The notes beneath the pieces are model-generated. The model searched no databases. It was not told where the DNA came from and saw nothing but the letters and a program-made list of their open reading frames with translations. From a bacterium (lineage in GTDB: Bacteria; Bacillota_I; Bacilli_A; RFN20; CAG-826), in contig CAVHQU010000001.1 in assembly GCA_963638555.1 (NCBI GenBank), forward strand, positions 26,317 through 90,316: a stretch of 64,000 bases of DNA, in the 5' to 3' direction. The position numbers and the translations under genes were made by a program. Below, piece after piece: positions 9,454 through 35,259 of this stretch; position 1 is the first letter of the stretch, and every line of letters begins with the position of its first letter.

Positions 9454-10446
9454 CTATTTTAAGAATTCGTTCTTCTTCTCTCTTTGAAGCAATAAGGAGG
9501 CGATATCTTTTGCTGATTCTCCATTATTTACGATTTCATTAACACCATAGACAATTGGCATATCAATCTTATATTTATCACAAAGTTGTTTTGCGGCTTT
9601 TAAAGAATTAACGCCTTCAACAACCATTCCTACTTTTTCAATTGCTTGAGATATTGAATATCCTTCCCCAATATAGTGACCACATTGATTGTTTCTAGAG
9701 TGTTTGCTTGTGCAAGTTACAATGAGGTCACCAATGCCGGCTAAGCCTGAAAACGTTGTATGATCGCAGCCCATAGCGATACCTAATTTGGCTAATTCAT
9801 GCACTCCGCGCGTGATTAAAGCCGCTTTAGCATTATCGCCGTAGCCTAAGCCATCTGAAATACCACAGGCGATAGCAATAATGTTCTTAAAGGCCCCGCA
9901 AAGTTCGCAACCTTTTCTATCTTCATTTGTGTATACTCTAAAAATCTCTGAATGAAATATATGTTGAACCTTCTTGGCATTTTCAAGGTTTGAACAAGCA
10001 GCGACAATACAAGTAGGCAGAGAAATGGAAACCTCTTCCGCGTGACTTGGCCCAGTAAGAGCAACGACTTCATTTTTATTTCCTAACACATCTTCAATTA
10101 TTTCCGACGTTGTAAGCAAGGAATCTTCTTCAATGCCTTTTGCAAGATCGACAATCAATTGATTTTTAAAGAGGGGTTTTATCAATTTTGCTGTATTTCT
10201 TATATATGAAGACGGCGTAGCAAAAACGATTACTTCAGAGTCTTTCAAGCAATACTCAACATCCGCAGAAAAAACTATCTTTGATGAAAGAATTACATCA
10301 GGAAGATTCTTGTGCGTATGGGTTTGATTGAGGCGGGTTGCCTCTTCTTCACGATGAGAATAGCAAAAAACTTCATAGTCTTTATTTGCTAATAGATTAC
10401 AAATTGCACTGCCCCAAGTTCCGCTTCCTAAAACACATATCTTCAT
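9454..10446 (-). CDS. gpsA: NAD(P)H-dependent glycerol-3-phosphate dehydrogenase
   Basis: MKICVLGSGTWGSA Rossmann N-terminus. Start chosen at the internal ATG at 10446, which has a GGAGGT-like RBS. The ORF-track start at 10554 would overlap the GH5 gene. Confidence 0.85.
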   Translation of the reverse strand: MKICVLGSGTWGSAICNLLANKDYEVFCYSHREEEATRLNQTHTHKNLPDVILSSKIVFSADVEYCLKDSEVIVFATPSSYIRNTAKLIKPLFKNQLIVDLAKGIEEDSLLTTSEIIEDVLGNKNEVVALTGPSHAEEVSISLPTCIVAACSNLENAKKVQHIFHSEIFRVYTNEDRKGCELCGAFKNIIAIACGISDGLGYGDNAKAALITRGVHELAKLGIAMGCDHTTFSGLAGIGDLIVTCTSKHSRNNQCGHYIGEGYSISQAIEKVGMVVEGVNSLKAAKQLCDKYKIDMPIVYGVNEIVNNGESAKDIASLLLQREKKNEFLK

Positions 10447-10502
10447 ATAAATACCTCTATGGTATTGTAAAGGAAAATATTCTAAATGAGTATACGTATC
10501 CC

Positions 10503-11897
10503 TTATTTTTTCAAAAAGGAAGATATATAACCATATGTTTTTGATTGAATGCAATTGGATGTGTTGGTTGCTTCAAAGGCTTCTTTCAATTCATCGTAGG
10601 TTGAGGTTGCTAGGTTTACTTTCGTCTTGCCATCCCAAAGATTTAAACGTTCTGTATATAAAGACCAACTCGTATCCCACCAACCAGTTACTGCCGCTTT
10701 ATAAGTCCACATAGTCCATGAATAACCACGTTTTTCATAAATAGATAATTGGGAATTCCACGCTTCTTCATCATCAAAGAAAGTAAATTCAGAAACAGAA
10801 TATGGCACATCATACTCATGACCCCAAATATGCACTTCATGATATGAATTGAAAAGCCAATAAGGAACTATCTCATGGTTCCAATTATACAAATGGGTGT
10901 CATATTGAATATTTTCCCAACCATATTTATCAGGATCAGAAAAGCAATCAAAGGACCAGACTCCTTCAATATTAATTACGTGTTCATCGCCAACTGATCT
11001 TATCCCTTGGTATATTTTATCGAATACAGGCCCGCATACTTCAGGAACGGTTCCAGCGTCTTTGTTATCGTAATATGCACAAGGTTCATTAAGAAGATCG
11101 TATGTAGCAATAGCCTTTCCTAAATCAGGCCTTGTATATGTATAGTGTTCAGCGACATATTTCCAAAGATCGACTGTAGCATCCTGATAAATTTCATTTT
11201 TCCATAAATCAGCTTTGCTCATATCTCCACAATGCTCGTATCCATTTTGCCCGCCTGGAGCACCATGCAAATCAAGAACGCAATAGAGATTATATTTTTG
11301 ACAATTGGCAATGAATGAGTCGATATACGAAAAAGCTTCATTTTCTTCTTTTCTTGTAAAGGTTCCATTTTCTTCATTTAGAATATTTCTCCAATAAAAG
11401 GGGAGACGTATGGTGTTTAATCCTAAATCTTCGATGTTTTTGAAATCGATTTCAGAAAACCAATTTTCTCTATAAATATCAATAAGTTCTCTTCTTTGAG
11501 AATCATTAAGATTTGGGTTTGAATAATAACCTTTTATAGCCTCTTCCATTGGGAGTTCTGGATAAGTCGTTAAATTATTTTCATCAATGATTTGATTTCC
11601 ATTTTCATCAAGGCATTCACCAACAGAAAACGGAGAAATCCATCCTTCTGATATTAAAAGGTTTCCAGCATTCACGCCTTGCAGAACCAGTCTATTTCCG
11701 TTTTTATCATATAAGGAGTTTCCATCAGCATAAACGAGCCCATTTCTATGAGAGATTTTAGATTTTCCACCACTTAAAGTAATCGAACGATTATTTGTCA
11801 TCGTTGCAACCACGCCCAAAAAGCCTGCGGGCAATATCAGTAAAGCTCCAAAAACAGACAAAGAAATAATCAAAAACTTCTTCTTTTTAGGTTTCAT
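10503..11897 (-). CDS. Glycoside hydrolase family 5 (cellulase/mannanase-type), N-terminal signal anchor
   Basis: LDLHGAPGGQNG and LLNEP (the acid/base Glu in the NEP motif). NTIRLPFYW. Hydrophobic N-terminal segment after a Lys-rich start. Confidence 0.8.
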   Translation of the reverse strand: MKPKKKKFLIISLSVFGALLILPAGFLGVVATMTNNRSITLSGGKSKISHRNGLVYADGNSLYDKNGNRLVLQGVNAGNLLISEGWISPFSVGECLDENGNQIIDENNLTTYPELPMEEAIKGYYSNPNLNDSQRRELIDIYRENWFSEIDFKNIEDLGLNTIRLPFYWRNILNEENGTFTRKEENEAFSYIDSFIANCQKYNLYCVLDLHGAPGGQNGYEHCGDMSKADLWKNEIYQDATVDLWKYVAEHYTYTRPDLGKAIATYDLLNEPCAYYDNKDAGTVPEVCGPVFDKIYQGIRSVGDEHVINIEGVWSFDCFSDPDKYGWENIQYDTHLYNWNHEIVPYWLFNSYHEVHIWGHEYDVPYSVSEFTFFDDEEAWNSQLSIYEKRGYSWTMWTYKAAVTGWWDTSWSLYTERLNLWDGKTKVNLATSTYDELKEAFEATNTSNCIQSKTYGYISSFLKK

Positions 11898-11999
11898 AAA
11901 ATATGTTTATCGACAAGTTGATTATAAACTTTACCCATGAAACTTTGCAAATAAAAAAGGCCAATCTTTAAGACTGACCTAATTTAATTGTTAAGAAAT

Positions 12000-13124
12000 C
12001 TATCCTGGGAAACCGCCACCGCCTGGGAAACCGCCACCTTGTGATGATGTGCCTTTTCCAGCTGTGCTTGCTGCAATTTCAACTTTGCTAGAAACAACAC
12101 TCTTTGCATAAACTGTTCCATCAGCAGTAATAGATGCTTCGATGTAATAAGTTGATCCTGTAACAAGATCAGTTGTTGCGGTTGCTGTATCAACAACTTC
12201 TAATCCAAGTGTATTGTTAACTGTTGTTCTACCGAACATCGTTGTTTCAGTATAAGTTAATGTGTCTGTCTTAATTGGAGTTGTTGCAGTGGTCGAATCA
12301 TAAACATTGATAGTAAATGCTGTATTCTTATAGAAATCAGAATAATTTGTTAATGTAACCAAGATACCACCTGCAGTTGGAACTTCAGCTGTGATGGTTG
12401 GAGTTGCATATTCACCATGTAAGATTTTCACATCAGAAGTTGCAATAGCACTATCTTTAATATGATTGTCATCGCCTAAGGCTTGGACGGTGAAAGCAAA
12501 ATAGTTTGGTTCAAATTCAGAAGCAACAGAATCTGTTAACTTATATGAAACTTTTTCTGACGTTGAAGCAGGAACTTTGAAGTTTGTAAGAAGACTATCT
12601 TCGGAAATTGTTCCTTTTGCATCGGATTTATAAGCAAATACGTTGTAATTTGTTGCGTGCAAATCGCCAGTAAAGGAAATTGTCATATTGTCCCAATCAA
12701 ATTCAATATCTTTTGGTGTTGCTAAGGTAAGATCGTCTTCGCGGATTGTGTAGCTGATAGCTTCAGAACCATTTGAGGAATTGTAACTAACACCATCGCC
12801 AACTGCAACGACTTGAATCTTATATGTTCCGCCATCTAAAGGTGTAGGAAGTTCGATTTGAGTGGTTGTACCAGTGGTGACTTTAGCTTTAGAATCACCA
12901 TCTTTGTAAACGTAGACTTGGTAGCCTGATGCATTTTCAACAGCATCAAATGTTACATAGTCATCTTCGCTTGACCAGTCATCATCACCCGTATGAAGAG
13001 TGACGTTGGTTGGAGCATCAAGTAATTTTCTTGCAACCTTCTCTGTTGTCGTTTCACCACATGAGGCTAAGAGGGCAGAAGCAGAGAGAAGAGTTACATA
13101 TCTAAGTGTTTTTTTAGATTTCAT
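12000..13124 (-). CDS. Lipoprotein with Fn3/Ig-like repeats, Gly-rich C-terminus
   Basis: Lipobox LLASCG after MKSKKTLRYVTLLSASA. Repetitive beta-rich sequence. Ends SSQGGGFPGGGGFPG. Confidence 0.6.
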   Translation of the reverse strand: MKSKKTLRYVTLLSASALLASCGETTTEKVARKLLDAPTNVTLHTGDDDWSSEDDYVTFDAVENASGYQVYVYKDGDSKAKVTTGTTTQIELPTPLDGGTYKIQVVAVGDGVSYNSSNGSEAISYTIREDDLTLATPKDIEFDWDNMTISFTGDLHATNYNVFAYKSDAKGTISEDSLLTNFKVPASTSEKVSYKLTDSVASEFEPNYFAFTVQALGDDNHIKDSAIATSDVKILHGEYATPTITAEVPTAGGILVTLTNYSDFYKNTAFTINVYDSTTATTPIKTDTLTYTETTMFGRTTVNNTLGLEVVDTATATTDLVTGSTYYIEASITADGTVYAKSVVSSKVEIAASTAGKGTSSQGGGFPGGGGFPG

Positions 13125-13137
13125 TTTGTTTTTTCTC

Positions 13138-14766
13138 CTAGAAAATAAGTGTCAATAAGAGAAGCGTGGCAAGGACGATATGTCCAACCTTTATCTCTTT
13201 GAAGTGGAAACGAATAACCTTGAGGACAACATCGGAGATAACTCCAACAGCGATTGCGACAACGAAATTCATTGTGAAACCTGCAATGAGAATTGCAAAG
13301 AGTGATGGCAAAAATTCTCCCATATCATTCCAATTGACATCTTTGATTTTGCTAAATGCAAACAATCCAGCGATAAGAACGATAGCATAGATGACCATAC
13401 CGTTGATAAATAAGCCTGAGAAGACAAATGTAAATGCGGATACGATCACGATAATGCCTGCAACAATTGAGGTTAAACCAGTTCTTCCGCCTTCTTTTGA
13501 TGAAACAAGCGATTCAGGACGTGCAGTGATAGTAGGAACACCAAAGAATGCACCAACTAAAGAGGCAAGAGCGTCTAAACTATAGACGTTTGCATAGTTG
13601 CCAACAGGTCCAAATAAATCAGAATCTCTGTAGATAGCATATTCGCCGTTTTCGTCTTTTTCATCAGCAATGGCTGCGTGAGCTTGCATGACTGATCCAG
13701 TTTCGGAAATGCCAATCATTAAGAATGACATGAAAGTCGTAAAGAAGATTGAGAAGACTGACAATCCAGCGTTACTGCCTTCTGGAAGAGTCGCCATATA
13801 AGCGGAGAAGTCAAATCCAGATTTGAAGATAGCGCCAAGATATGAGTTGGAGATCGTTCTCCAAGACATTGTTGAGGATTGGGTATAGTAATATGAACCA
13901 CCATATGATGGGGTTAAGAACGAGAAGAAATAATAGTCACGGAAGTTTCCTCTGATGAGCCAGCAAAGGACATAGATTAACAAGCCAATGCCAAAGGCAT
14001 CAATGAGAGGATGCTTGAAACTCCAATTCTTGATTTTGATATTTGCTAAAACGACATAAATTAATAATGTCACAAAGCAAATAATGACAGACATATAGCT
14101 GTAATAATATGTGCTATCGGAGAAATCCAAATTAAGAGTGACGTAAGTGAGTGAATCTCTAGGGATCGAGTCACCTGCGCTCATCTTAGAATTTAAGATT
14201 GAAGCAATGTTGAATTCGTTAACGTTTAAGATTCCAAGTTGGATGAGAACGTAAACGATTAGCATCAAGCCAACCATGGCGGGCATCGCTTTCTTTATGC
14301 TTGTCGGAACGGCTTTAAGAATAAAATTTCTTGTGAGAGGGATAGCCATGACAATTAAGTAAACAATGTTTGAAACAAATGAGATGGCAATGACGTTCCA
14401 ATAAGTTAATCCCGAATGAGCACCCATTATGGAAATTATCAAAGAAACGACGCCTAAACTCACTGAATGAGTAAGAGGAACGTTAGTGATAAGGCCAATG
14501 AGGATGCTGCTAATGCCAGAGATTAACGCAATGATGAAATAAAGCGTGTAGCCAAACGAATCTTCCGTTGTCAATCCGGCCTTTCCAGACAGGAGAGTTG
14601 CTAAGATAACCGAGGTACAAGTAAGAGCAAAACCAGCTAAGATACCAGCGAAAAGTTCAGTTTTTGTATTTGTCTTTCTTTTGCTAAAAAGGAATATGGA
14701 GTCAAAGAATCGATACACGGGGTTCTTCTTTTTCTCCTTGATGGTGATTTCTGTGTTATTTTCCAT
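13138..14766 (-). CDS. Polytopic membrane permease, NCS2/AzgA-PbuG-like
   Basis: TELFAGILAGFALTCTSVILATL and AIPLTRNFILKAVPTSIKKAMPAMVGLMLIV resemble the N-terminal and TM segments of AzgA/PbuG purine permeases, but the protein is longer (542 aa). RBS GGAGAAAGG. Confidence 0.5.
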   Translation of the reverse strand: MENNTEITIKEKKKNPVYRFFDSIFLFSKRKTNTKTELFAGILAGFALTCTSVILATLLSGKAGLTTEDSFGYTLYFIIALISGISSILIGLITNVPLTHSVSLGVVSLIISIMGAHSGLTYWNVIAISFVSNIVYLIVMAIPLTRNFILKAVPTSIKKAMPAMVGLMLIVYVLIQLGILNVNEFNIASILNSKMSAGDSIPRDSLTYVTLNLDFSDSTYYYSYMSVIICFVTLLIYVVLANIKIKNWSFKHPLIDAFGIGLLIYVLCWLIRGNFRDYYFFSFLTPSYGGSYYYTQSSTMSWRTISNSYLGAIFKSGFDFSAYMATLPEGSNAGLSVFSIFFTTFMSFLMIGISETGSVMQAHAAIADEKDENGEYAIYRDSDLFGPVGNYANVYSLDALASLVGAFFGVPTITARPESLVSSKEGGRTGLTSIVAGIIVIVSAFTFVFSGLFINGMVIYAIVLIAGLFAFSKIKDVNWNDMGEFLPSLFAILIAGFTMNFVVAIAVGVISDVVLKVIRFHFKEIKVGHIVLATLLLLTLIF

Positions 14767-14820: not shown

Positions 14821-17800
14821 TTATTCAGCTTTTTCTTTGCGTTTCTTTGAACCAAAGTAGATTCCGACGCCAAGCCCAACTACCACGACTCCACCGATAA
14901 GCGAACCGACAATGATGCCGGTGTTATCCGAACCAACTGTTGTTTCTTTGATGATCGTATCTGTTTGTCCCGTTAAATTAGAGACATCCATTTCGTCATA
15001 GTTATAGGATTCGCCCATAGTCCAATCAGATCCATCAAAGACTGTAGCTTTGCAAATGATGTGCGTATCGTAATAAAGTCTCGTCTTGGCAACTTCTCTT
15101 AATTGATATGCGCCATAGTAATCGTTTATTGTGTTCATATCGCATGCAGTTCCTGAATTGTAAGAGGAAACAGCAAAGATAGAACCATCGTTCATTTCGG
15201 CATCAGACACCTTATCGAGTGCATTGCTCCAAAGAAGACATGCAACGCCAGAGAAGGTCGCTTTGACTTCGCCAGAATATGTGACACCATCCATACCATC
15301 AGAGATGATAAGTCCATGCCAGTCATATTCTTCACGAACAATGCCGGTGTATAAGCCACGGTTTGCCCATGTGATACCAATTCTGTTAAGGGAGGCCATC
15401 ATACCAGACATTGGGGCGATCTTCGATTTCATTGATCCTTCCCAAGCACGGATATAGATTTCACGGATAGCTTGTTCAGAGCAGAAATCCATTTGTCCAG
15501 AACGTCCGCCATCAAGGTCGTTTAACATGAAGTGTTTATTGAACGTGCCAACGCCTTCGGATTGAATGCCAGCAGTTTCAGCAATACACATTTGTCCAGC
15601 AAGGAAGCCATCTTCTGAATAATATTCGAAGTTACGACCACCAAATGGTGAACGGTGTGTATTCATAGCAGGTCCGAAGCACGAATCTTCGCCGATTCTA
15701 ACACATTGTTTGCCATAAGCTTGGCCAACTCTTTCGATGAGTTCTCTATTCCATGTTGAAGCCATGACAACTTCAGATGCCCACCATGTGCAATCATCTT
15801 GGTTGCCCGTTCCAGCTTCACCTGGGCCATCAGCCGCACTCTTTTGGGCTAAGCCCATGGAATCAAATCCACCAAGATATGACGTGCCTTGGATTTTAGC
15901 ATAATCCGCCCAAGAACCCTGATCAACCCAGTTATCCCAACGTGCATCTGTATAAGGAATTTCATCCCATCCATATGACGTTTTTGGGTCTGTATCGGTC
16001 GTTATTGCATCGCTTGAAGAGATTTCATTACCTCTTACGAAACGTGTGTCTGGAGTGTATTTAGTTGTAGATTTTCCAACATTGGCGACTGCATCCTTGT
16101 AGGATTGGTCGTTATTGTCTTTGCCCCAATAGTTGCAAGTGTTTCCAACAAACTCCGTTGAAGATGCAAAACCATAGTTATAGGTGCATTCTTTTGTTGT
16201 ATCTTGATATGGGACTTTGTATGTGACAGTTGTGCTTGAACGTTTATCAGAAACTTGAGCCTTTCCTGTCGTATCAGATGGGAGAGCACGGGTTGCGCCA
16301 TACACTTCATCTTCTCTTCCACCCTTTTCATATCCAGTTGCACCTTTATTCGCAATAGTATCCCAATCAGAAGAGATTGTTGAACGGTGCATATAAATCA
16401 TGCCTGTGCCATCTGTGGCGTTAACATCATTTAATTTATTGTATGCTTGAGTTGCATCTTGGTCTCTCTTGCCATCTGCTTCATCGGTATAAATGATATC
16501 TTTAGCGACAGTTGTCTTAATAGGATCAGTCATTTGAGTATGAGAATCTTTTTGAAGACGAACTTCATATTCACCAGATTCAAGAACGAATCCGCCCCAT
16601 TTTGGATTGCCAGCATGATCAGTTCCGCTTGCGGTTGCTTTGTATCCCAAGTAATCGTAGGAAGCAATATCATCGGTGTTAAAGGTGATTGTGACATTGC
16701 CATCTTCACCCGGTTTTAAACGACCGGTTTTTGCAAATCCAGCAAGGGTGACTTCTGCTTTATCAATGCCACCTTTGTTGTATGGTGCGTGAATATACAA
16801 TTCAACGACATCCTTACCAGCATAATCGCCAGTATTCTTAACATTGACGACAACCGTGTTTGTTCCGCCTTTTTCAAGTTTTACATCGCTAGAAACAATT
16901 GTCCAATCGAACGTGGTATAGCTTAAACCACCACCAAATGGCATAACAATGAGATCATCGTAGTCATTCTTGAAATCATACGTTTTTGCTTCTTCAGCAA
17001 TAGAACCATCTTTTGCGTAACGTGGTGTTCCCGTTACTTTAACTCCATCGGCATAAGCTGTTTCATACCAACGATAACCAACAAAGATATTTTCTTCATA
17101 TTGATTGTAGTTAGGAGAACCACCCCAGTTTCCACCGAAGCCATTTGAATAAGAAGAGCCACCATTGTTATAGAATACAGGCATGGAATAGAAATCAGAC
17201 ATCCATGTATCGGAAGTTCTGCCGGATGGAGAGAGTTGTTTTCCGGCAGAATCTTTTCCTCTAAGAACGTTGCCAACACCGATAAGGCCAGCTTCACCAG
17301 GCCCGCCAATCCAAAGACATGCATCGGAATATTGGAGATATTCACCGATTGTCATGACGTTTGAAGAGTTGATGAGAACGACAATCTTTTTATAGCCGAG
17401 TTCTTCTTTTAAATATTTAAGAAGATCAAGTTCGTTTTGTGTTGGGTCAAGATATGTCCTATCGTATTCACCAGCTTGGGTACCATTTGTATCAATGGTG
17501 TGAGAATCCATGTGTTGAGGAAGTTCAGCGCCTTCGTGGCCTTGTCTGCCAAATGTTACGACAGCGATATTGTCCGTTGGATTTGCGACATCTTTAGACT
17601 TACGATAGGTTTCGACTGGTAATTCTGGGACATTATAGGATTGTCCGTTGATAATTGTGCCACCATTATCGGAAACCCACGATTCTTGGACAAGGTTTCC
17701 ACCATTTGGATCACCCATCCAGTTCCAAAGTTTTTCATTAACTTTAAATCCGGCAAGTTCAAATGCTTCCTTTTCGAACATGCATTTGGAATCCCATTTG

Positions 17801-18096
17801 CCTTTGCCAGAACCGCCACCGCCATGGATTATGTTGTAACCAACGTAACCATACAAATCCAAACCGGTGCCACTGTTTAATGGAAGAGCGTTGTTTTTGT
17901 TTTGGAAAAGAACAGATCCCTCTTCTTCGAGTTCGGTATCGAGTTTGACACCTTCTTCGTAAAGAGTTTGCACGTCATAGCCATCTGCTGCGTAAGTAAC
18001 GCTCGGGGATGAGATGGAGGCTGCAAACACAGCCGCGATTGCCCCAGCACTTGCTAAGATGGTCATGCCGCATTTAACTAATTTTTTCTTTTTCAT
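14821..18096 (-). CDS. Glycoside hydrolase family 3, domain-permuted (C-terminal-type domain first, catalytic domain last), signal peptide and C-terminal TM anchor
   Basis: N-terminal part LFQNKNNALPL...IHGGGGSGKG matches the GH3 C-domain. The GH3 catalytic motif GGRNFEYYSEDGFLAG and nucleophile region LIISDGMDG lie near the C-terminus. Ends in hydrophobic helix GIIVGSLIGGVVVVGLGVGIYFGSKKRKEKAE. Confidence 0.8.
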   Translation of the reverse strand: MKKKKLVKCGMTILASAGAIAAVFAASISSPSVTYAADGYDVQTLYEEGVKLDTELEEEGSVLFQNKNNALPLNSGTGLDLYGYVGYNIIHGGGGSGKGKWDSKCMFEKEAFELAGFKVNEKLWNWMGDPNGGNLVQESWVSDNGGTIINGQSYNVPELPVETYRKSKDVANPTDNIAVVTFGRQGHEGAELPQHMDSHTIDTNGTQAGEYDRTYLDPTQNELDLLKYLKEELGYKKIVVLINSSNVMTIGEYLQYSDACLWIGGPGEAGLIGVGNVLRGKDSAGKQLSPSGRTSDTWMSDFYSMPVFYNNGGSSYSNGFGGNWGGSPNYNQYEENIFVGYRWYETAYADGVKVTGTPRYAKDGSIAEEAKTYDFKNDYDDLIVMPFGGGLSYTTFDWTIVSSDVKLEKGGTNTVVVNVKNTGDYAGKDVVELYIHAPYNKGGIDKAEVTLAGFAKTGRLKPGEDGNVTITFNTDDIASYDYLGYKATASGTDHAGNPKWGGFVLESGEYEVRLQKDSHTQMTDPIKTTVAKDIIYTDEADGKRDQDATQAYNKLNDVNATDGTGMIYMHRSTISSDWDTIANKGATGYEKGGREDEVYGATRALPSDTTGKAQVSDKRSSTTVTYKVPYQDTTKECTYNYGFASSTEFVGNTCNYWGKDNNDQSYKDAVANVGKSTTKYTPDTRFVRGNEISSSDAITTDTDPKTSYGWDEIPYTDARWDNWVDQGSWADYAKIQGTSYLGGFDSMGLAQKSAADGPGEAGTGNQDDCTWWASEVVMASTWNRELIERVGQAYGKQCVRIGEDSCFGPAMNTHRSPFGGRNFEYYSEDGFLAGQMCIAETAGIQSEGVGTFNKHFMLNDLDGGRSGQMDFCSEQAIREIYIRAWEGSMKSKIAPMSGMMASLNRIGITWANRGLYTGIVREEYDWHGLIISDGMDGVTYSGEVKATFSGVACLLWSNALDKVSDAEMNDGSIFAVSSYNSGTACDMNTINDYYGAYQLREVAKTRLYYDTHIICKATVFDGSDWTMGESYNYDEMDVSNLTGQTDTIIKETTVGSDNTGIIVGSLIGGVVVVGLGVGIYFGSKKRKEKAE

Positions 18097-18260
18097 AATT
18101 TCCTCCTTGAAATAATTAGTAAGCTTTATTCCGAACTGCTTAATCGGCTAAGTAAGCCCTTACATGAAAGACTGGCTTAAATGTGAGTCGAACAATAAAT
18201 GCGTTGCTTAACTCGGTTGGCAATACTCTAAAACAAAACAAAATGAAAATGTTGTGCTCG

Positions 18261-18337
18261 GGAATGAAACGACCTTTTTTGGGAATGAAACGACTATCGA
18301 AAAGGAATGAAACGACCTTTTTTAGGAATGAAATGAT
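18261..18337 (+). promoter_or_regulatory. Array of four direct repeats GGAATGAAACGAC(C) at 21-22 bp spacing (LytTR-type binding-site architecture) upstream of the kinase gene
   Basis: Repeats start at 18261, 18282, 18304 and 18326 (last copy GGAATGAAATGA), with a degenerate fifth at about 18344. Each is followed by a T-run. TATAAT at 18371-18376 lies just before the ORF. Confidence 0.5.
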
Positions 18338-18382
18338 TTTTAGGCTAATGAAAGAGGTTTCATAAGCCTTTATAATATTGAT

Positions 18383-19717
18383 ATGGATTTTTTACGTTAC
18401 TTCATCGATTTCTACATCAATCTTGTTAGAGGCTATTCTTATCCAATTACAGAAATTTTCATGTATTTAGGAATCGTTGCTCTATTCTTTAGAAAGAGAA
18501 AACATAAAATTAGATATCTTTTGTACATATTTGATGCGGTATGCATATGGTTAGCAGGCCTCATCTTAACCTCTTTTATATATTGGGGCTGTTCATTCAA
18601 AGAAACATACACGATTGAAGTTGTTTTGCCTTTGTTGATAGTTGGTTATGCCTTCATGAGAGGAGAATGTTCCCTAATTTTACGCTTTATATATGGTTTT
18701 ATTTATTATGCAGTTTTGTCTTCTTCTTTGGTCATATCTTCGTATTTCGGATCATTAATTTATTCAGCTGGAGTTTCTATCAGCAATTTCCCCTTAACAT
18801 TAGTTGTTCAAATTTTATTGATAGTTACCACAGTTCTCGTTTTAAGAATACCTAAAATAGAAGACTTCGATGATACCAATGTCGTTTATTCGTACGTCGT
18901 TTTACTAATTCCAATCATTCATCTTATTGTTATTTATAGTGTTAAGTTTGTAGATTCTGATCCATCTTTGCAAAAGACAATCTATAACTTAGCCTTTGTT
19001 ATGCTGGAGTATATCGTGTACATCTTCTACTATTTCATAATGAAGGAACATCACCACAATTATGAGTTACAAGCTTTAGCGATTAAAAAACAGCAAGATG
19101 TCGCCTTAACGCATATGGCAAAAGACAATGCCGCCCTCCTTTCAAAAGTACGTCATGACATGAAAAACCATCTTGCATATATGGGCACTTTGTTAAAAGA
19201 GAAGAAATACGATGAACTCGATTCTTATTTCGCTCAATACTCAACTGAGATATATGATGCAGTCAAATTTTCTAATTGTGGTAATTCATCGGTTGATTAC
19301 ATGTTGAATATCGAAATACAAAACGCTAAGAGGCATAATGTTGTTTTAACATATTTAGTTTCTGTCGCACCAACTTTGCCGATTAAGAGCACGGATTTGA
19401 CCTCTTTGTTAATGAATGCTTTGGATAATGCGATTGAAGCTGCATCAAAATCGGAAGAGAAGAAAGTTAACTTCTCCATGAGGCAAGAAGGAATGTCCAT
19501 CTTGATAAAAGTCAGCAATAGCATTAGCAAAGGTTCAAAGATAGATTTCAGAAAGACAAGTAAACGTTCCTTAGGGCATGGCTATGGAATAAAGATCATG
19601 AATGACGTGGCCGAAAAGTATGGCGGAGCGTTTAGTATTAAAAAAGAGGATGAGTCTAACGTAACCCTCACTTGTATGCTATCTTTATATAACAAGGAGG
19701 AAGAAAATGGCAAATAA
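18383..19717 (+). CDS. Sensor histidine kinase, HPK10 (AgrC/ComD/PlnB-like) family
   Basis: Six or seven N-terminal TM helices. H-box VRHDMKNHL, N-box LMNALDNAIEA, G-box GHGYG. Overlaps the next gene by 11 nt. The true start may be a downstream ATG because a -10 box sits 7 nt upstream. Confidence 0.8.
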   Translation: MDFLRYFIDFYINLVRGYSYPITEIFMYLGIVALFFRKRKHKIRYLLYIFDAVCIWLAGLILTSFIYWGCSFKETYTIEVVLPLLIVGYAFMRGECSLILRFIYGFIYYAVLSSSLVISSYFGSLIYSAGVSISNFPLTLVVQILLIVTTVLVLRIPKIEDFDDTNVVYSYVVLLIPIIHLIVIYSVKFVDSDPSLQKTIYNLAFVMLEYIVYIFYYFIMKEHHHNYELQALAIKKQQDVALTHMAKDNAALLSKVRHDMKNHLAYMGTLLKEKKYDELDSYFAQYSTEIYDAVKFSNCGNSSVDYMLNIEIQNAKRHNVVLTYLVSVAPTLPIKSTDLTSLLMNALDNAIEAASKSEEKKVNFSMRQEGMSILIKVSNSISKGSKIDFRKTSKRSLGHGYGIKIMNDVAEKYGGAFSIKKEDESNVTLTCMLSLYNKEEENGK

Positions 19718-20450
19718 AATCGTTATTGCAATTTGCGATGATGAAAGAGAAATTCTCAATATCATCTCTTCTTCTGTCTCTATTGCTTTTACAAATAAAC
19801 ATATTAATATGGAGATTCTCACATACACGGATCCCTTCTTTTTGAAAGATGACCTTTCAAATAAGAATATTTCTTTGATATTTTTGGACATCGATATGCC
19901 TGGCTTAAGCGGAATTCAACTTGCTAAATACATTAATGACATGAACCTTGAGATCGACTTCATTTTCGTTTCAAACCGTGAAGATTTAGTTTTTGAATCA
20001 TTGAAAACAAGACCTTTTGGATTTGTCAGAAAATCCGCTTTCTTATCAGATATCACACCGATAATAGATACTTACATCAAAACAAAATTTCATAACGAGG
20101 ATGCAGGTATCTTGGTAAAAACAAAAAATGGCAGAGAGAGTGTTGCTTTAAATGACATCACCTACATTGAAGCAATAGGTAAATCTCAGTTCATTCATCT
20201 TAAAAGTGATCCTAACAAAGCAGCAGAGGTTCACTCATCTCTTTCAACATTGCAGGAATCTTTGAAAAGTAAAAACTTCATTAGAGTATCTAAAGGCTTT
20301 ATCGTTTCTCTTAGATATGTTAAGGCAATTAACTGCGATGAAGTTCTTTTAAGCACAGGAGAAAAGATTATCATTTCAAAGATATATAGTCATGATGTTA
20401 GAATGGCTTATATGGATTATCTCCAACAACTTGAATCAGTTATTTTATGA
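19707..20450 (+). CDS. Response regulator, receiver + LytTR DNA-binding domain
   Basis: Receiver IAICDDE...FLDIDMPGLSG. LytTR domain ITYIEAIGKSQFIHLKSD...FIRVSKGFIVSLRYV. RBS AAGGAGGAAGAAAATG. Confidence 0.85.
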   Translation: MANKIVIAICDDEREILNIISSSVSIAFTNKHINMEILTYTDPFFLKDDLSNKNISLIFLDIDMPGLSGIQLAKYINDMNLEIDFIFVSNREDLVFESLKTRPFGFVRKSAFLSDITPIIDTYIKTKFHNEDAGILVKTKNGRESVALNDITYIEAIGKSQFIHLKSDPNKAAEVHSSLSTLQESLKSKNFIRVSKGFIVSLRYVKAINCDEVLLSTGEKIIISKIYSHDVRMAYMDYLQQLESVIL

Positions 20451-21970
20451 GTTACGTATTTATTTCAACCGAAAAGAAAGAAAAAGATTTAATTTTCGCT
20501 TATCTTGAAGCGGATGACTCTTTGAAAATCATCAATAAAAATGTTTTAAATTTTGAAAACGATAAAGATGAGATTTATGACATCTTAACAAATCCAGACA
20601 ATGGGATATTTGGCTGGTCTATTTATGATGATATTTTTAACATTTTGAATTCGTTTAATGCTACAGGAGTCGAACCTTTTGATTTTCAAGTCTTTGATGT
20701 CAGGTATATGCTTAACGTCATTTTAGCTGACACAGACAATTACGAATTGAGGAAATACATTCCTTTGTATCTTCAGGAAGACAAAGACAGTCCAAAGATT
20801 GAAAATAACCCGTATCTGATATACCAAGCATTTAAGAATTTGCTATTCGTTCTTGGAAATGGAATTGATGAATTCTTAGATAGAAGAGATTTCGATTCAT
20901 GCTTTTATTATTCTCTTGATGCGTATTATGGAGAAAAGCCTCAAGAGGGTGTTGTGGACAAGCTTAGATTGCAATATATAAAGAATCTTGAAGAAAAAGG
21001 TTTGACCCATTATGTATTTTTCGATTTTGAGTGTGCCAATTGTTTGAATGGATCGGGAAAAATTTGTGAACTCGGCGCGGTTGAGACCGACTTAGATTTC
21101 AACATTATCAAAGAGCATCATTTCCCAATAAACCCTGATAGTAAATTTCTTTTAGCAGATAGAGACGGCGTCAAAAGAATTCATCTGTATTGGGAGGCAA
21201 ATGATTATCAAGCATATAAGCAAGCCCCTAAATTAGAACATTACTACCCCTTCTTCAAGGAATTGCTAGAAGATGAACACTCGTTGAAATTCGGCCACGC
21301 GGTTGAGAATGATTTGTGGTTCTTAGCGAGTGACCTTAAAAGAAACAATTTGCCGCCAATAAGTGTTTCAGCAGTCGATACTCAAATGATGTATCGCCTT
21401 CTGATCGATGAAACCAAGGTTTCCATCGCTCTTCATAAAGCATTAATCTCTTTATGTGGCGAGGAAGAATTAGAGAAATACGATCATCATAACTCATTAG
21501 ATGATTCAAAAATGACGATGAGAATCCTTAAAGAGATGTTAAACAATAGTGGAACAACCTTACTAGAGCTTCTGAAGAATAGGACTTCATTGTTAAGAAC
21601 AGTTGAAGATACAGACTTGCTCGATAGAAATGGCAATGCATATAAATTCCCTATGCCTGATAGATTCCGTCAAATAGAACCGGCCGTCCCTGAAAGAATA
21701 TACACAGGTATCTACTCGATTGGCTTAGGCGATAGGCTAATTAAGGAAGCAGTCTATCAAGACTACGATAAAGCACATATGGGTGCCTTTGATGGAAAGA
21801 AATACCTATTTTCTAAGAGTTATAGGTACCTTGATATAGAAACTATTAAAGAAACAATTTCAAAATTAAGAAAAGAAGGAAAAATCATTACAAACGATTA
21901 TTCACAAGCCAATTTCGTTGTTGATCCTAAAGGTGAAATTGTGATTCATAGAAGAGAGAAACATCGCTAA
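20447..21970 (+). CDS. DEDDh (DnaQ-like) 3'-5' exonuclease domain protein with uncharacterised N- and C-terminal extensions
   Basis: Exo I FFDFECAN, Exo II GHAVENDLWFL, Exo III YDHHNSLDDS in the middle third of a 507-aa protein. ATGA start-stop overlap with the LytTR regulator gene. Confidence 0.7.
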   Translation: MSYVFISTEKKEKDLIFAYLEADDSLKIINKNVLNFENDKDEIYDILTNPDNGIFGWSIYDDIFNILNSFNATGVEPFDFQVFDVRYMLNVILADTDNYELRKYIPLYLQEDKDSPKIENNPYLIYQAFKNLLFVLGNGIDEFLDRRDFDSCFYYSLDAYYGEKPQEGVVDKLRLQYIKNLEEKGLTHYVFFDFECANCLNGSGKICELGAVETDLDFNIIKEHHFPINPDSKFLLADRDGVKRIHLYWEANDYQAYKQAPKLEHYYPFFKELLEDEHSLKFGHAVENDLWFLASDLKRNNLPPISVSAVDTQMMYRLLIDETKVSIALHKALISLCGEEELEKYDHHNSLDDSKMTMRILKEMLNNSGTTLLELLKNRTSLLRTVEDTDLLDRNGNAYKFPMPDRFRQIEPAVPERIYTGIYSIGLGDRLIKEAVYQDYDKAHMGAFDGKKYLFSKSYRYLDIETIKETISKLRKEGKIITNDYSQANFVVDPKGEIVIHRREKHR

Positions 21971-22034
21971 AATTCATTAATTTTTATTCTTTTAAGAATA
22001 TAATTATCAAGTTAATGGTTTTTAGGAGGGAAAT

Positions 22035-22619
22035 ATGTATCAAGAGTTACAAAAAGGTTGGATTGAACTTATCGTCGGTCCAATGTTCGCTGGAAAAAGT
22101 GAAGAATTAATTCGTAGAGTTAAGACCTTATCATATACAAAAATGAAAATCATCGCGTTTAAGCCCGCGATTGATGATCGTTATGATAAGACCGCCATAT
22201 CTTCTCATGATGGCGCTAAATATGAAGCATATGCAATCAAAGAAGCTAAATCCATTATGGAATTAGTCAAAGATGATACGCAAGTTGTGGCAATAGACGA
22301 AGTTCAATTCTTCGATATGTCTATCGTCTCTATATGCGAAACCTTAGCAAATAGAGGAATACGTGTCATTGCGGCAGGGCTTGATTTGGATTTTAGAGGC
22401 GAGCCATTTGGGCCTATGCCTGAGTTGTTAGCAAGAGCGGAGTTCGTTACAAAATTATCTGCCGTATGCGTTTGCTGTGGATGCGCTGCAACTAGAACCC
22501 AAAGATTAATAAATGGAGAGCCTGCTTATTATGATGATCCAATAATTCAGGTTGGTGCAAAAGAAAACTACGAAGCTAGATGTAGAAAACATCACATAGT
22601 TAAAATAAGAGGAAGATAA
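22035..22619 (+). CDS. tdk: Thymidine kinase
   Basis: P-loop [12 protein letters not shown]-terminal Zn-ribbon cysteines CVCCGC. RBS TAGGAGGGAAATATG. Confidence 0.9.
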
Positions 22620-31679: not shown

Positions 31680-32150
31680 CTATTCTGCAATAGCTTCTGT
31701 AGATTCGACTTTAACTTCTTTTGTAAGATTGAAGAAGGAACCAACAGCAATAACAATCATTGTTGCGCAATAGATGATGAATGCTGGTCCACCAGTTCCC
31801 ATTGCGCCGACTGCATATTCATTCGTTCTATCTAAGCTTGTCGCCCATACAGTACCAATTAGATAGGTTCTTGAATTGATAACGAAGTAGAAACAAATGC
31901 CAGACAAGACGGCTGCAGCAAGCATTGGGATATACGAAACGAAATGATTTCCGAATTTCAATGACAACGCTACTGAGCCAAGCAAGCAAATTACTGCAAC
32001 AATTGAGAACCCGATGATTAAACCCAATTGAGAAATTTCATATCCTAAGAAGGAAGAAGAAATGATTGTTAGAATCATCGAAGCAAGAATGAGAATTGCT
32101 GAAGCGAGATTAACATAGCTAGCAACGCTTAAATTTTTAATGAATTTCAT
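31680..32150 (-). CDS. Small four-TM membrane protein, function unknown
   Basis: 156 aa, four hydrophobic helices. Its start abuts the GH3 stop (32152), suggesting co-transcription. Confidence 0.5.
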   Translation of the reverse strand: MKFIKNLSVASYVNLASAILILASMILTIISSSFLGYEISQLGLIIGFSIVAVICLLGSVALSLKFGNHFVSYIPMLAAAVLSGICFYFVINSRTYLIGTVWATSLDRTNEYAVGAMGTGGPAFIIYCATMIVIAVGSFFNLTKEVKVESTEAIAE

Positions 32151-32151
32151 A

Positions 32152-35100
32152 TTATTTTGCTCCTTTCTTCTTATTTTCTAAGACAGTGAAGACAACCGTT
32201 CCTGCAGCGCCTAAGAGCACTACAGTTGCAGACGCAGAGATTATTGCAATATAAGCCGCTCTCCACCATGTCATATTTGAAACGATTTCTGTATTTGCAT
32301 TAACGGTATTCATGTAATTGCTTTGAGTGATAACCCAAAGATTACGATGAACTGCTTCTTTAACGTTATTAAGAATCTTCTTGTCATGCTTAACATCTTC
32401 GATATCGAAACCGGAGATGTCATTAATTGTATCTTTGGAGTCAAAAGAGGTGATACCTGCGGCTAATGCTTGTGGAAGATAATCTTCATCATCATTTAAA
32501 TCCGAGACTATATATCCATTATATCCCCATTCTTCTCTAAGAATATTTGTCAATAATCCTTCAGAGCAAGTGACTTCGCATGGGCCAATCTTTGAGAAAG
32601 ATGTCATAACGCCTAAAAGGCCTACATCCTTTTCTTCCGTGTCATATTTATCTGCCTCAAAAGCAATTTGGAAAGCTCTAAGTTCGATTTCACGGGCACG
32701 TTGCTCGTTTAGATATGGTGCAACGCCATCACGATGGGTTTCTTGATCGTTGAATGCAAAATGTTTTGGGGCGGCGATTAAGCCTTTATCAAGTGCACCG
32801 ATGGAATATTCCATACCGGTATTTCCAGTAAGAATTGCATCTTCTGAATAATATTCAATATTACGACCATTATAGCCATTACGATGAGTATTCATTGATG
32901 GGCCCCAAAGAATTGGAAGGCCAACAAAGAGGGCATCATTGCCAATGAGTCTTCCTTCTTCATAGGCAAGTTCATGGCTGAATGTTGCGGCTAGAACTGG
33001 GCCAGAGGTGAAAACTCTCATCTCATATTTGGCATTAGGATCATCTTCAGAAATATGCCAAGGACATTCAGAGACGTTATCACCGAAATTGTTGTAAGAG
33101 ATAGTTTGGAAAGCTTGATCGCCAACCCCATTAGGGCCATTTTCGGTGAATTTTCCGCCAAGGAATCCAACGGAATCCATCGCTAAGAAGTCTCTATTGC
33201 CATGAACGATGAAATTCAACGCGTCTTCAAGGTTCAATTGATCTAATAAAGATGACCAATCTTGGTAATCATAGTCAGCCCCCTTAAGGTTAACGTAATT
33301 TAAATCCCCTTCTTGATCGAACTTGATTAAAGAAACGTCATCATTTGTTGATGGCTCATACATCATGCCATTGATGATTTGAATCATCTCTGGGGTTGCC
33401 TCAAGACCTTTGTATTCTTTTGGCCACGTGCCAGACCAGTCATTGCGGGAGAGATAAGTGACAGCATTTTCTTGATATGTGTTGAAATCTGCACCTGAGA
33501 GATTGTTCTTTACTTGAACGCCCGCTTTAGTGACATTGAATGTGTCAGAATCAGTTTCGGAAACGTCATAATTATAAAGATAGGCTTTAGAAGGTTCACC
33601 ATTAGCTGACGAATACCCTTGTCTTGCTAAGATGTTATTGACAGCTTCGTGAGCACCATTGCCAATGGAGAAATAGTAATCTCCTCCATCAAGAATATAA
33701 GAGCCTTCGCCGCCTTTTGCTAAAGAATCCCATGAAGCAATGTTTTGCATATCAACTTCAATGGTGAGAGTAACGCTTTGATCTGGATCTAAAAGAGCGG
33801 TTTTATCATATGCTAATAATTGAATTGCACTCTTTTCAACACCGTTAGCGATATTTTCTTCTGTGTATGGTGCTTGGCCATAGATTTGAACAACGTGCTT
33901 ACCAGCTTTAGAGCCAGTGTTAGTGACTTTAACTTCAAATTCCATCTTGAATTCATGGGCTTTATGGGTAATTTTTGGTTCACCAACGAATTCTTCGGAG
34001 AATGTTGTATATGAAAGGCCGTAGCCAAATGGATATGAAACTTCTTTATCGTAATCCCAATTGCCTTCATAAGAAGATCCTGCAGTTGAATTTGCGTTGC
34101 CTTTATTAGCAATCGCATCGGCATATCTGGTTTCATAATAATGATATCCAGTGTAGATACCTTCCGCTTCAATAACGTAATATTGGCCTGAAGCGCTGGA
34201 TTTTAAACGTTTGGCGAATTCAGATGCGTCATTGGAATATTTATATTCTCCCATGTTGATTGTGGCAGGGGCAGAAAGGCTATATGAAGCATAGGTGTCA
34301 GGTAAATGTCCCGATGGATTTATGCTGCCATTAAGGATTTCAGCAACTGCACGTGTGCCATAGTTTCCGCCAATGCCCATCCAAAGGATGGCATCTATGC
34401 CTTCGTCTTGCTTTAAATCATCGATTTCCATTTGGTTAACGGCATTGACGATAACGATGACTTTCTTACATTTGGACTTGGCATATTCGATAATGTTCTT
34501 TTCATTTGTCGAAAGCTGCATTGGATTATCCATACCAGCTGCTGGGTCAACTTGATCTTTAGTCCAGTCAACACCTTCGGTAGCGGCTCTGCCAACAACA
34601 ACAATACCAGCATCGTTATATTCTAAAATAGAATCTTCTGCAGCCGAATCTCTTGTGAGTAAATCGTCAATCGTTGCTTCTTTTGGGTTGAAGCCATTTC
34701 CGCCAGCATAGGTTGCATATGCGCCTTGTGGTGGATAATCATTCTCTAATATCTTATTATCAGAGCAGTAAGCGTCATATGCATCAGCAAGAGTTTCGTT
34801 AACTGAGAATCCGGCTTCCTTTAAAGCATCACGGAAATGAACAGTTTGATTATTTCCTGCCGCTTTATGACCAATAAATGCACCAGTAATCGTTGCTGAC
34901 GAACGAATACCAAATAAAGAAACTTTGCATTTATTGTCGTTACTCGTGTTTAAAGGTAAGGTTCCATCATTCTTTAAAAGAACGGTTCCTTCTCCTTGTA
35001 TTTCTTTTGCTAAATCTTCGTGGGCTTTAACGAGTTTAGCTGAATCGCCTTTGCCATCTGTGAGCAATTCTTCGTCTGGAGTGAAAGTATTGAATAACTC

Positions 35101-35259
35101 TCCTTCTCCTTTTTGAACTAATTTAGTTGAATGGGTTCCGAAAAAACCATCGAGTGTGCCTGCGTTTGCTTCCATAACATTGGCGGCCGCAATACCGAAT
35201 ACTAATGTCGATGCAAATACAAACGTGAGGCCTCTGCTTACGCGTTTTAGTTTAGCCAT
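32152..35259 (-). CDS. Glycoside hydrolase family 3, domain-permuted paralog with signal peptide and C-terminal TM anchor
   Basis: GRNIEYYSEDAILTGN and KHFAFNDQE near the C-terminus. N-terminal region has the GH3 C-domain signature (LLKNDGTLPLNT). C-terminal helix AAYIAIISASATVVLLGAAGTVVF. Confidence 0.8.
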   Translation of the reverse strand: MAKLKRVSRGLTFVFASTLVFGIAAANVMEANAGTLDGFFGTHSTKLVQKGEGELFNTFTPDEELLTDGKGDSAKLVKAHEDLAKEIQGEGTVLLKNDGTLPLNTSNDNKCKVSLFGIRSSATITGAFIGHKAAGNNQTVHFRDALKEAGFSVNETLADAYDAYCSDNKILENDYPPQGAYATYAGGNGFNPKEATIDDLLTRDSAAEDSILEYNDAGIVVVGRAATEGVDWTKDQVDPAAGMDNPMQLSTNEKNIIEYAKSKCKKVIVIVNAVNQMEIDDLKQDEGIDAILWMGIGGNYGTRAVAEILNGSINPSGHLPDTYASYSLSAPATINMGEYKYSNDASEFAKRLKSSASGQYYVIEAEGIYTGYHYYETRYADAIANKGNANSTAGSSYEGNWDYDKEVSYPFGYGLSYTTFSEEFVGEPKITHKAHEFKMEFEVKVTNTGSKAGKHVVQIYGQAPYTEENIANGVEKSAIQLLAYDKTALLDPDQSVTLTIEVDMQNIASWDSLAKGGEGSYILDGGDYYFSIGNGAHEAVNNILARQGYSSANGEPSKAYLYNYDVSETDSDTFNVTKAGVQVKNNLSGADFNTYQENAVTYLSRNDWSGTWPKEYKGLEATPEMIQIINGMMYEPSTNDDVSLIKFDQEGDLNYVNLKGADYDYQDWSSLLDQLNLEDALNFIVHGNRDFLAMDSVGFLGGKFTENGPNGVGDQAFQTISYNNFGDNVSECPWHISEDDPNAKYEMRVFTSGPVLAATFSHELAYEEGRLIGNDALFVGLPILWGPSMNTHRNGYNGRNIEYYSEDAILTGNTGMEYSIGALDKGLIAAPKHFAFNDQETHRDGVAPYLNEQRAREIELRAFQIAFEADKYDTEEKDVGLLGVMTSFSKIGPCEVTCSEGLLTNILREEWGYNGYIVSDLNDDEDYLPQALAAGITSFDSKDTINDISGFDIEDVKHDKKILNNVKEAVHRNLWVITQSNYMNTVNANTEIVSNMTWWRAAYIAIISASATVVLLGAAGTVVFTVLENKKKGAK

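Follow-up and report, generated by a model that had tools for sequence, protein, structure and literature searches.

A kinase–LytTR pair and its repeat array as the probable control of a neighboring surface GH3 operon, beside a resident exonuclease gene, in a CAG-826 bacterium

The 64,000-nucleotide (nt) stretch analyzed here, hereafter the window (contig CAVHQU010000001.1, positions 26,317 to 90,316, from a CAG-826 bacterium of Bacillota_I), carries the genes of an HPK10-type membrane histidine kinase, a LytTR response regulator and an exonuclease in tandem behind an array of direct repeats, and a glycoside hydrolase family 3 (GH3) operon which diverges from them. Comparison with related loci indicates that the kinase–regulator pair, together with the repeats, probably controls the neighboring operon of the surface GH3, and that the exonuclease is a resident gene beside a probably inserted cassette. 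This cassette resembles a small Gram-positive polysaccharide-utilization locus. An earlier note on the same DNA had described the kinase, the regulator and the exonuclease as a signaling module with the nuclease as its fixed output; the trio proved not to be conserved as neighbors, and this more striking claim does not hold.

The association of the kinase–regulator pair with the GH3 operon is seen first in the closest loci. A block of ~8.5 kb (about 11.94–20.45 kb) is composed of the kinase, the regulator and the divergent GH3 operon, that is, the genes of GH3, of a membrane protein (p542) and of a lipoprotein (p374). The order in the window is Tex–GlnIII–GpsA–GH5–(p374, p542, GH3 <-> kinase, regulator)–exonuclease–tdk. 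The GH3 operon and the two-component system are together present in the window, in its closest relative (L002) and in L011, and together absent in L004 and L005. In L011, these five genes recur with their repeats in a different neighborhood, and the contig also contains a second, paralogous GH3 <-> kinase–regulator module. GC content reaches 39–45% in the GH3 operon versus 32–37% in the flanks, which is only a mild hint of foreign origin. As a separate observation, the L011 cassette is located among genes of mobile or defense type (11618–14344 and 19838–20730), namely those of a Schlafen-like helicase, a RelB antitoxin and DUF3846, and this is consistent with a mobile cassette.

The linkage recurs in other relatives. 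When the 80 related-kinase loci were ranked by regulator similarity, the top five scored 138–167 bits and the remainder ≤111. One of the five (L012) was left out because its contig ends 758 bp past the regulator gene; in the other four (L013, L021, L014, and L017) a permuted GH3 is placed just downstream of the kinase–regulator pair. Linkage to GH3 was therefore present in 4/4 assessable closest regulator relatives versus 4/75 of the rest (Fisher p = 4.7e-5; 80 loci listed). The linked enzymes are permuted in all seven cases (7/7; domain order GH3_C, Fn3-like, GH3_N), and each has a signal peptide, a C-terminal transmembrane (TM) helix and a basic tail. In L021, a Christensenellaceae metagenome-assembled genome, a 21-kb stretch (1–21197) contains the genes of three permuted GH3 enzymes and of two related kinases, showing that modules can amplify in tandem.

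The GH3 gene of the window (14821..18096, minus strand) encodes a circularly permuted glycosidase of 1091 amino acids (aa), whose Pfam domains follow the order named above. Its two hydrophobic segments are a signal peptide (aa 6–31) and a TM helix (aa 1057–1084) with a basic tail behind it, which would serve as a C-terminal membrane anchor. The protein is 93% identical to its counterpart in L002 and 87% to that in L011. The next gene, p542 (13138..14766, minus strand; 542 aa), encodes a polytopic membrane protein with at least 10 hydrophobic segments, a candidate permease. Copies of it accompany GH3, with identities of 78% in L011 and 38% in L017, and it may represent an orphan putative transporter family, possibly NCS2/AzgA-like. 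Relatives of p542 adjoin GH3 in L011 and L017, and weaker relatives are found in L006 and L069. The operon ends with p374 (12000..13124, minus strand), a lipoprotein of 374 aa with the signal LLASCGE, whose copy in the L011 cassette is 73% identical. Pfam searches at relaxed thresholds, for p542 even at E = 1, gave no family for p542 or p374. A second permuted GH3 of 1035 aa is located elsewhere in the window (32152–35259, minus strand), followed by an open reading frame (ORF) of 156 aa (whole stretch 31680–35259), and this pair mirrors the GH3 and 155-aa pair of the second L011 module.

The kinase gene (18383..19717, plus strand) encodes 444 aa and the regulator gene (19707..20450, plus strand) 247 aa. 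Pfam bore out the families that the earlier note had assigned to these two proteins and to the exonuclease (HATPase_c_5; Response_reg with LytTR; and RNase_T), and the overlaps it had reported, 11 nt between kinase and regulator and ATGA between regulator and exonuclease, were confirmed. In detail, the kinase matches HATPase_c_5 (PF14501) with E = 1.2e-16 and 60.9 bits against a cutoff of 22. Residues H258 (in RHDMKNH), N345, N349, G400, and G402 are invariant across 12 aligned kinases, that is, the window and 11 relatives. The N-terminal half is hydrophobic, with at least four strong segments in aa 43–221 by Kyte–Doolittle hydropathy and more by eye in aa 22–127. Judged in both these ways, the kinase has the multi-pass sensor without a large extracytoplasmic domain that characterizes HPK10 kinases (5–8 TM segments). 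Only three orthologs have a matching sensor domain, the third being that of L011, and a scan of metagenome contigs with the kinase as query did not find relatives. The regulator shows a receiver domain (Response_reg, PF00072; 1.4e-10) and a LytTR domain (PF04397; 3.9e-15), and residues D11, D12, D61, S89, and K109 can be read off its sequence. Its strong Shine–Dalgarno sequence (AAGGAGG) is located within the 3′ end of the kinase gene. NCBIfam gave no equivalog above cutoff for the kinase, the regulator or the exonuclease protein.

GH3 and the kinase are divergent neighbors across a common control region of 286 bp, likewise in L002 and L011. Between the window and L002, this region shows 94% identity, compared with just 78.5% for the kinases. 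It contains four direct repeats of the form GGAATGAAA(C/T)GA(C/T) (18261..18337, plus strand), predicted to be sites of the LytTR regulator, which start at 18261, 18282, 18304, and 18325; GGAATGAAACGAC is exact in the first three and the variant GGAATGAAATGAT forms the fourth. A degenerate fifth repeat, CTAATGAAAGAGG (18345..18357, plus strand), overlaps the −35 position of the kinase promoter (ATGAAA-17-TATAAT). The earlier note had reported four clear copies and a degenerate fifth in a LytTR-like geometry, which stands, and a spacing of 21/22/22, which does not: the starts are spaced 21/22/21, and the fifth copy follows 20 bp further on. In fact, the array consists of a double unit of 43 bp present twice. 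The pattern GGAAYRAAA-N11-14-GGAAYRAAA occurs three times at the array, nowhere else in the 64 kb and in none of 100 shuffles. Conservation in the orthologous loci, on which the earlier note had made its interpretation depend, was found in both L002 and L011, where the GGAA..GAAA core is invariant. In L011, the cores of five repeats are retained at a spacing of 20–22 bp, and the fifth repeat itself is identical in L002 and partly retained in L011. A sixth repeat upstream, at 18240, was considered and dropped, as it is conserved neither in L002 nor in L011.

On the two sides of the array, candidate −10 boxes are found for both transcription units. The TATAAT already noticed earlier was confirmed at 18371–18376 (plus strand); it would be the −10 box of the kinase–regulator promoter and is invariant in the window, L002 and L011. 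On the GH3 side, a candidate −10 box TAGAGT (18225..18230, minus strand), inferred from the sequence and without a −35 box, is kept as TAGAGT in L002 and as TAAAGT in L011, so that both boxes survive there. The four clear repeats are 30 nt away from TAGAGT and 33 nt away from TATAAT, and neither box has a good −35 box, a geometry that would fit a bidirectional promoter dependent on an activator. The kinase ATG follows TATAAT by 6, 6, and 9 nt in the window (18371–18385), L002 (3923–3937), and L011 (9472–9489), respectively, and has no Shine–Dalgarno sequence in any of the three, whereas the neighboring genes have a strong AAGGAGG; the kinase mRNA is therefore probably leaderless. In the three-way alignment of these loci, a stretch of the GH3 5′ leader (18100..18165, minus strand), with the Shine–Dalgarno sequence AAGGAGG at its end, is almost invariant. 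This leader holds the short inverted repeats TAAGC..GCTTA and CCGA..TCGG and could be an mRNA-stabilizing or regulatory element; an Rfam scan of the control region including the leader gave no family.

The position of the repeats in the relatives bears on which gene they serve. In a scan that covered three of the four GH3-linked relatives (L013, L014, and L017), direct repeats spaced by 21 bp were found in the interval from the regulator gene to GH3 but not upstream of the kinase. The L013 repeats, GGAACAAACGG, resemble the motif of the window and share its orientation with respect to GH3. Since the repeats of these codirectional relatives precede GH3 and not the kinase, the comparison points to GH3 as the primary target and suggests that autoregulation in the window is a side effect of its divergent layout. 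In L014, three 21-bp-spaced repeats come right after the regulator stop, with a GC-rich hairpin and, behind it, TATAAT downstream of them (2741–2850); the arrangement may represent a terminator or, in front of the genes of a YibE/F-like protein and GH3, a junction of terminator and promoter.

The same observations weigh on the possibility that the repeats autoregulate the kinase–regulator genes only, and that the GH3 operon is independently controlled and linked to them merely by cotransfer. Of the two start codons flanking the array, that of the kinase is indeed the nearer: 26 nt separate its ATG from the fifth repeat, against 165 nt on the GH3 side, and the fifth repeat covers the kinase −35 position. 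Nevertheless, exclusive autoregulation is improbable in view of the repeats found ahead of GH3, and not of the kinase, in the codirectional relatives, and of a linkage that persists through gene rearrangement and at about 30% protein identity.

A classical peptide quorum-sensing system of the Agr/Com/Pln type, with a pheromone gene that is small, unannotated or placed elsewhere and with an incidental GH3 linkage, has a similarly low probability. Its attraction lies in the kinase, which like the peptide receptors combines an HPK10 catalytic core with a multi-pass sensor and has a weak NCBIfam match to the AgrC model (E = 6e-4, far under the model cutoff), and in the direct repeats ~21 bp apart, the geometry of AgrA/ComE/PlnC-type sites. 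However, the 286-bp region contains no conserved small ORF: the two pheromone candidates obtained there (18140–18241 and 18183–18365) are broken by a 1-nt indel in L002. The earlier view that no peptide gene adjoins the kinase was thus sustained. Its statement on exporters held as well, within the 22 ORFs spanning 5–38 kb of the window that were scanned with Pfam and in which no AgrB-like or ABC-exporter domain was found. A paralog search returned no second kinase or regulator gene in the 64-kb window. An incidental linkage would also not predict that GH3 adjoins the pair again in four independent relatives whose gene order differs.

The exonuclease gene (20447..21970, plus strand), which overlaps the regulator gene by ATGA, encodes a protein of 507 aa. 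It consists of an N-terminal DEDD-like domain (aa 1–185), which is probably inactive, an active-looking DEDDh (DnaQ-like) 3′–5′ exonuclease domain (aa 188–371) and a small C-terminal domain, possibly BRCT-like. The Pfam match to RNase_T covers aa 190–361 (E = 1.3e-8). The intact DEDDh motif expected by the earlier note is there, both in fold and in the residues of Exo I (DxE), Exo II (D), and Exo III (H-x4-D): D193, E195, D289, H348, and D353 are invariant in 15 homologs. The predicted structure (predicted local distance difference test score, pLDDT, 79) matches ERI1, Pol III epsilon, the exonuclease domains of PolC and DinG, and TREX1. An exhaustive search placed the core in a large family of ~320-aa proteins that stand alone, with 425 cluster representatives at E ≤ 1e-10, and showed the N-terminal extension to be limited to a small clade. 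A sequence search of the PDB with the protein gave no match, and Pfam at relaxed thresholds gave nothing usable for the N- and C-terminal domains. An interpretation as a defense system was also considered and dropped, as the only PADLOC matches were generic DEDDh ones (CRISPR-associated DEDDh and PDC-S48) to the exonuclease, with kinase and regulator unmatched.

The gene context was looked up for eight full-length relatives of the exonuclease, the full-length set being small. Besides the window, L002 alone has all three genes together, with an exonuclease of 78% identity, and the eight other exonuclease loci (L003–L010) have no two-component system. In L004 and L005, with exonucleases of 69–71% identity, the order is Tex–GlnIII–GpsA–GH5–exonuclease–tdk, the GH3 operon and the two-component system both being missing, and the exonuclease gene directly follows the divergent GH5 cellulase gene. 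Relatives at 45–47% identity are located alone near GlnIII/Tex, or ahead of a NUDIX–CAT–dNK cluster. From the side of the kinase the result is the same: the kinase–regulator pair of L011 is followed by the Schlafen-like helicase and RelB and not by an exonuclease gene, and no exonuclease homolog was detected within 10 kb at any of the 80 listed related-kinase loci.

The N-terminus MSYxFIS of the exonuclease is conserved among the homologs, which indicates that the start codon is genuine and the ATGA overlap real; the overlap is present in both the window and L002. There is no terminator-like site between the regulator and exonuclease genes, so read-through from the kinase promoter is plausible and physically likely. 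An extended −10 sequence TGtTAGAAT within the 3′ end of the regulator gene (20396..20404, plus strand) is a candidate promoter of the exonuclease gene itself. It lies in the last codons of the regulator and is conserved in L002, and in loci without a two-component system the exonuclease gene likewise has TGnTAGAAT ahead of it; in L011, whose regulator gene is not followed by an exonuclease gene, the corresponding codons lack the sequence. This is suggestive of a promoter of its own that was retained or re-created at this site.

As a conserved unit, the three-gene module with a nuclease-domain protein as output is therefore largely refuted and has only a slight chance of being right, the overlap, the true start codon and the likely read-through being outweighed by the orthologs on both sides that lack the partner, by the stand-alone family of the nuclease core and by the candidate promoter; the lack of a conserved neighborhood is also what the earlier note itself had named as refuting it. 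Downstream of the exonuclease gene in the window, and also in L002, L004, and L005, the thymidine kinase gene tdk is found (22035..22619, plus strand; PF00265 at 9e-59). Every exonuclease ortholog (window, 20447–22619; L003–L010) adjoins genes of nucleoside or nucleotide salvage, either tdk downstream or a convergent NUDIX–CAT–dNK cluster, which hints at a role connected with nucleotide recycling. In the same neighborhood, the GpsA ORF (9454–10554, minus strand), with its listed TTG start overlapping the cellulase gene, has 366 aa versus 330 aa in its orthologs, and its true start is probably further downstream.

Several points weigh against control of the GH3 operon by the kinase–regulator pair and against the exonuclease as a mere resident. 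The second GH3 of the window has no adjacent two-component system but a DegV gene upstream. Promoter-like matches in the control region are no commoner than in shuffles, both promoters being known from sequence alone, and a single orientation of the repeats must serve two divergent promoters. The match of a position weight matrix (PWM) of the window motif in L013 is not significant alone (p = 0.18). The repeats of L014 and L017 differ in sequence from those of the window, and the PWM found no match there, which suggests that those regulators have other specificities. Moreover, the linkage statistics are drawn from a sample, the 80 related-kinase loci listed by the genome-contig scan, in which the lineage of the window itself does not appear. 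Finally, the ATGA overlap between regulator and exonuclease is kept in two species (the window and L002), and coexpression of the nuclease may occur.

If the kinase–regulator pair does control the GH3 operon, a signal, which is more likely a glycan or a product of GH3 than a peptide, would reach the multi-pass kinase; the kinase would autophosphorylate on H258 and phosphorylate the regulator in turn on D61. The phosphorylated regulator would then occupy the four to five direct repeats, which at 21–22 bp, about two helical turns, lie on the same face of the DNA, within the 286-bp region. Since near-symmetric −10 boxes without good −35 boxes surround the repeats, binding would activate both sides, switching on the GH3 operon and autoinducing the two-component system. 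The exonuclease and tdk genes would have been resident at the site and the cassette inserted directly upstream, which would have left the regulator stop overlapping the exonuclease start; a loss of the cassette in the relatives is a less simple alternative. The exonuclease gene, which appears to keep its own extended −10 promoter in the 3′ end of the regulator gene, would be at most read through, and may be translationally coupled, when the system is on.

The system shares with AgrCA, ComDE, PlnBCD, and BlpHR the HPK10 catalytic core, the multi-pass sensor and the REC–LytTR regulator, as well as direct repeats of ~21 bp upstream of a promoter without a good −35 box, and autoregulation is likely here too. 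It differs from them in having no peptide precursor beside the kinase and no AgrB-like or ABC-exporter domain in the scanned ORFs, in its four to five repeats instead of a pair, and in its conserved partner, which is a glycosidase operon and not toxins, bacteriocins or competence genes. In the divergent nlmC–comC region of Streptococcus mutans, which belongs to a bacteriocin/peptide system, ComE activates one side and represses the other. Similarly, a single set of LytTR repeats between divergent genes could act on both of them in the window. To our knowledge, LytTR/HPK10 systems have been studied almost only as peptide quorum-sensing switches of virulence, bacteriocins and competence.

A closer parallel comes from polysaccharide utilization. 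In Butyrivibrio proteoclasticus B316, three LytTR regulators (in PUL7, 21, and 33, that is, polysaccharide-utilization loci) are each near a secreted GH3 with a C-terminal TM helix (Kelly et al. 2010, PMC2914790). As in that species, a LytTR regulator is found here beside a secreted, C-terminally anchored GH3 in a polysaccharide-utilization context, and genomes may hold several paralogous modules (two in L011 and several in L021); the likeness is drawn from the published description of those genes. The B. proteoclasticus paper reports the association only, without kinase type, operator or mechanism, whereas an HPK10 kinase, a permuted GH3 and a conserved 21–22-bp array are found here. In Roseburia, one polysaccharide locus lists a LytTR regulator with a kinase (PMC5320581). 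A literature search found no paper that characterizes such a LytTR–GH3 system experimentally.

The LytTR–GH3 association has thus been published since 2010, a new mechanism is not demonstrated here, and the value of the present results is incremental. New are the defined operator, the link to a permuted, anchored GH3 in several families, and an Agr-type kinase that is probably used independently of a peptide. A bolder extension is conceivable and is offered tentatively, as we consider it doubtful: an HPK10–LytTR clade of gut and rumen Clostridia and related Bacillota would be a dedicated non-peptide switch for TM-tethered permuted GH3 enzymes, with the GH3 anchor helix or p542 as a cosensor that reports substrate turnover, and with the exonuclease–tdk genes captured by read-through in the lineage of the window, which would place a nuclease and the salvage of nucleosides under a glycan signal.

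If the control of the GH3 operon by the kinase–regulator pair is true, the GH3-tied clade in fiber-degrading gut Bacillota would extend the LytTR/HPK10 systems to carbohydrate sensing. The defined operator (GGAAYRAAA at 21–22 bp) and the compact cassette would then offer a handle on the induction of Gram-positive polysaccharide loci.

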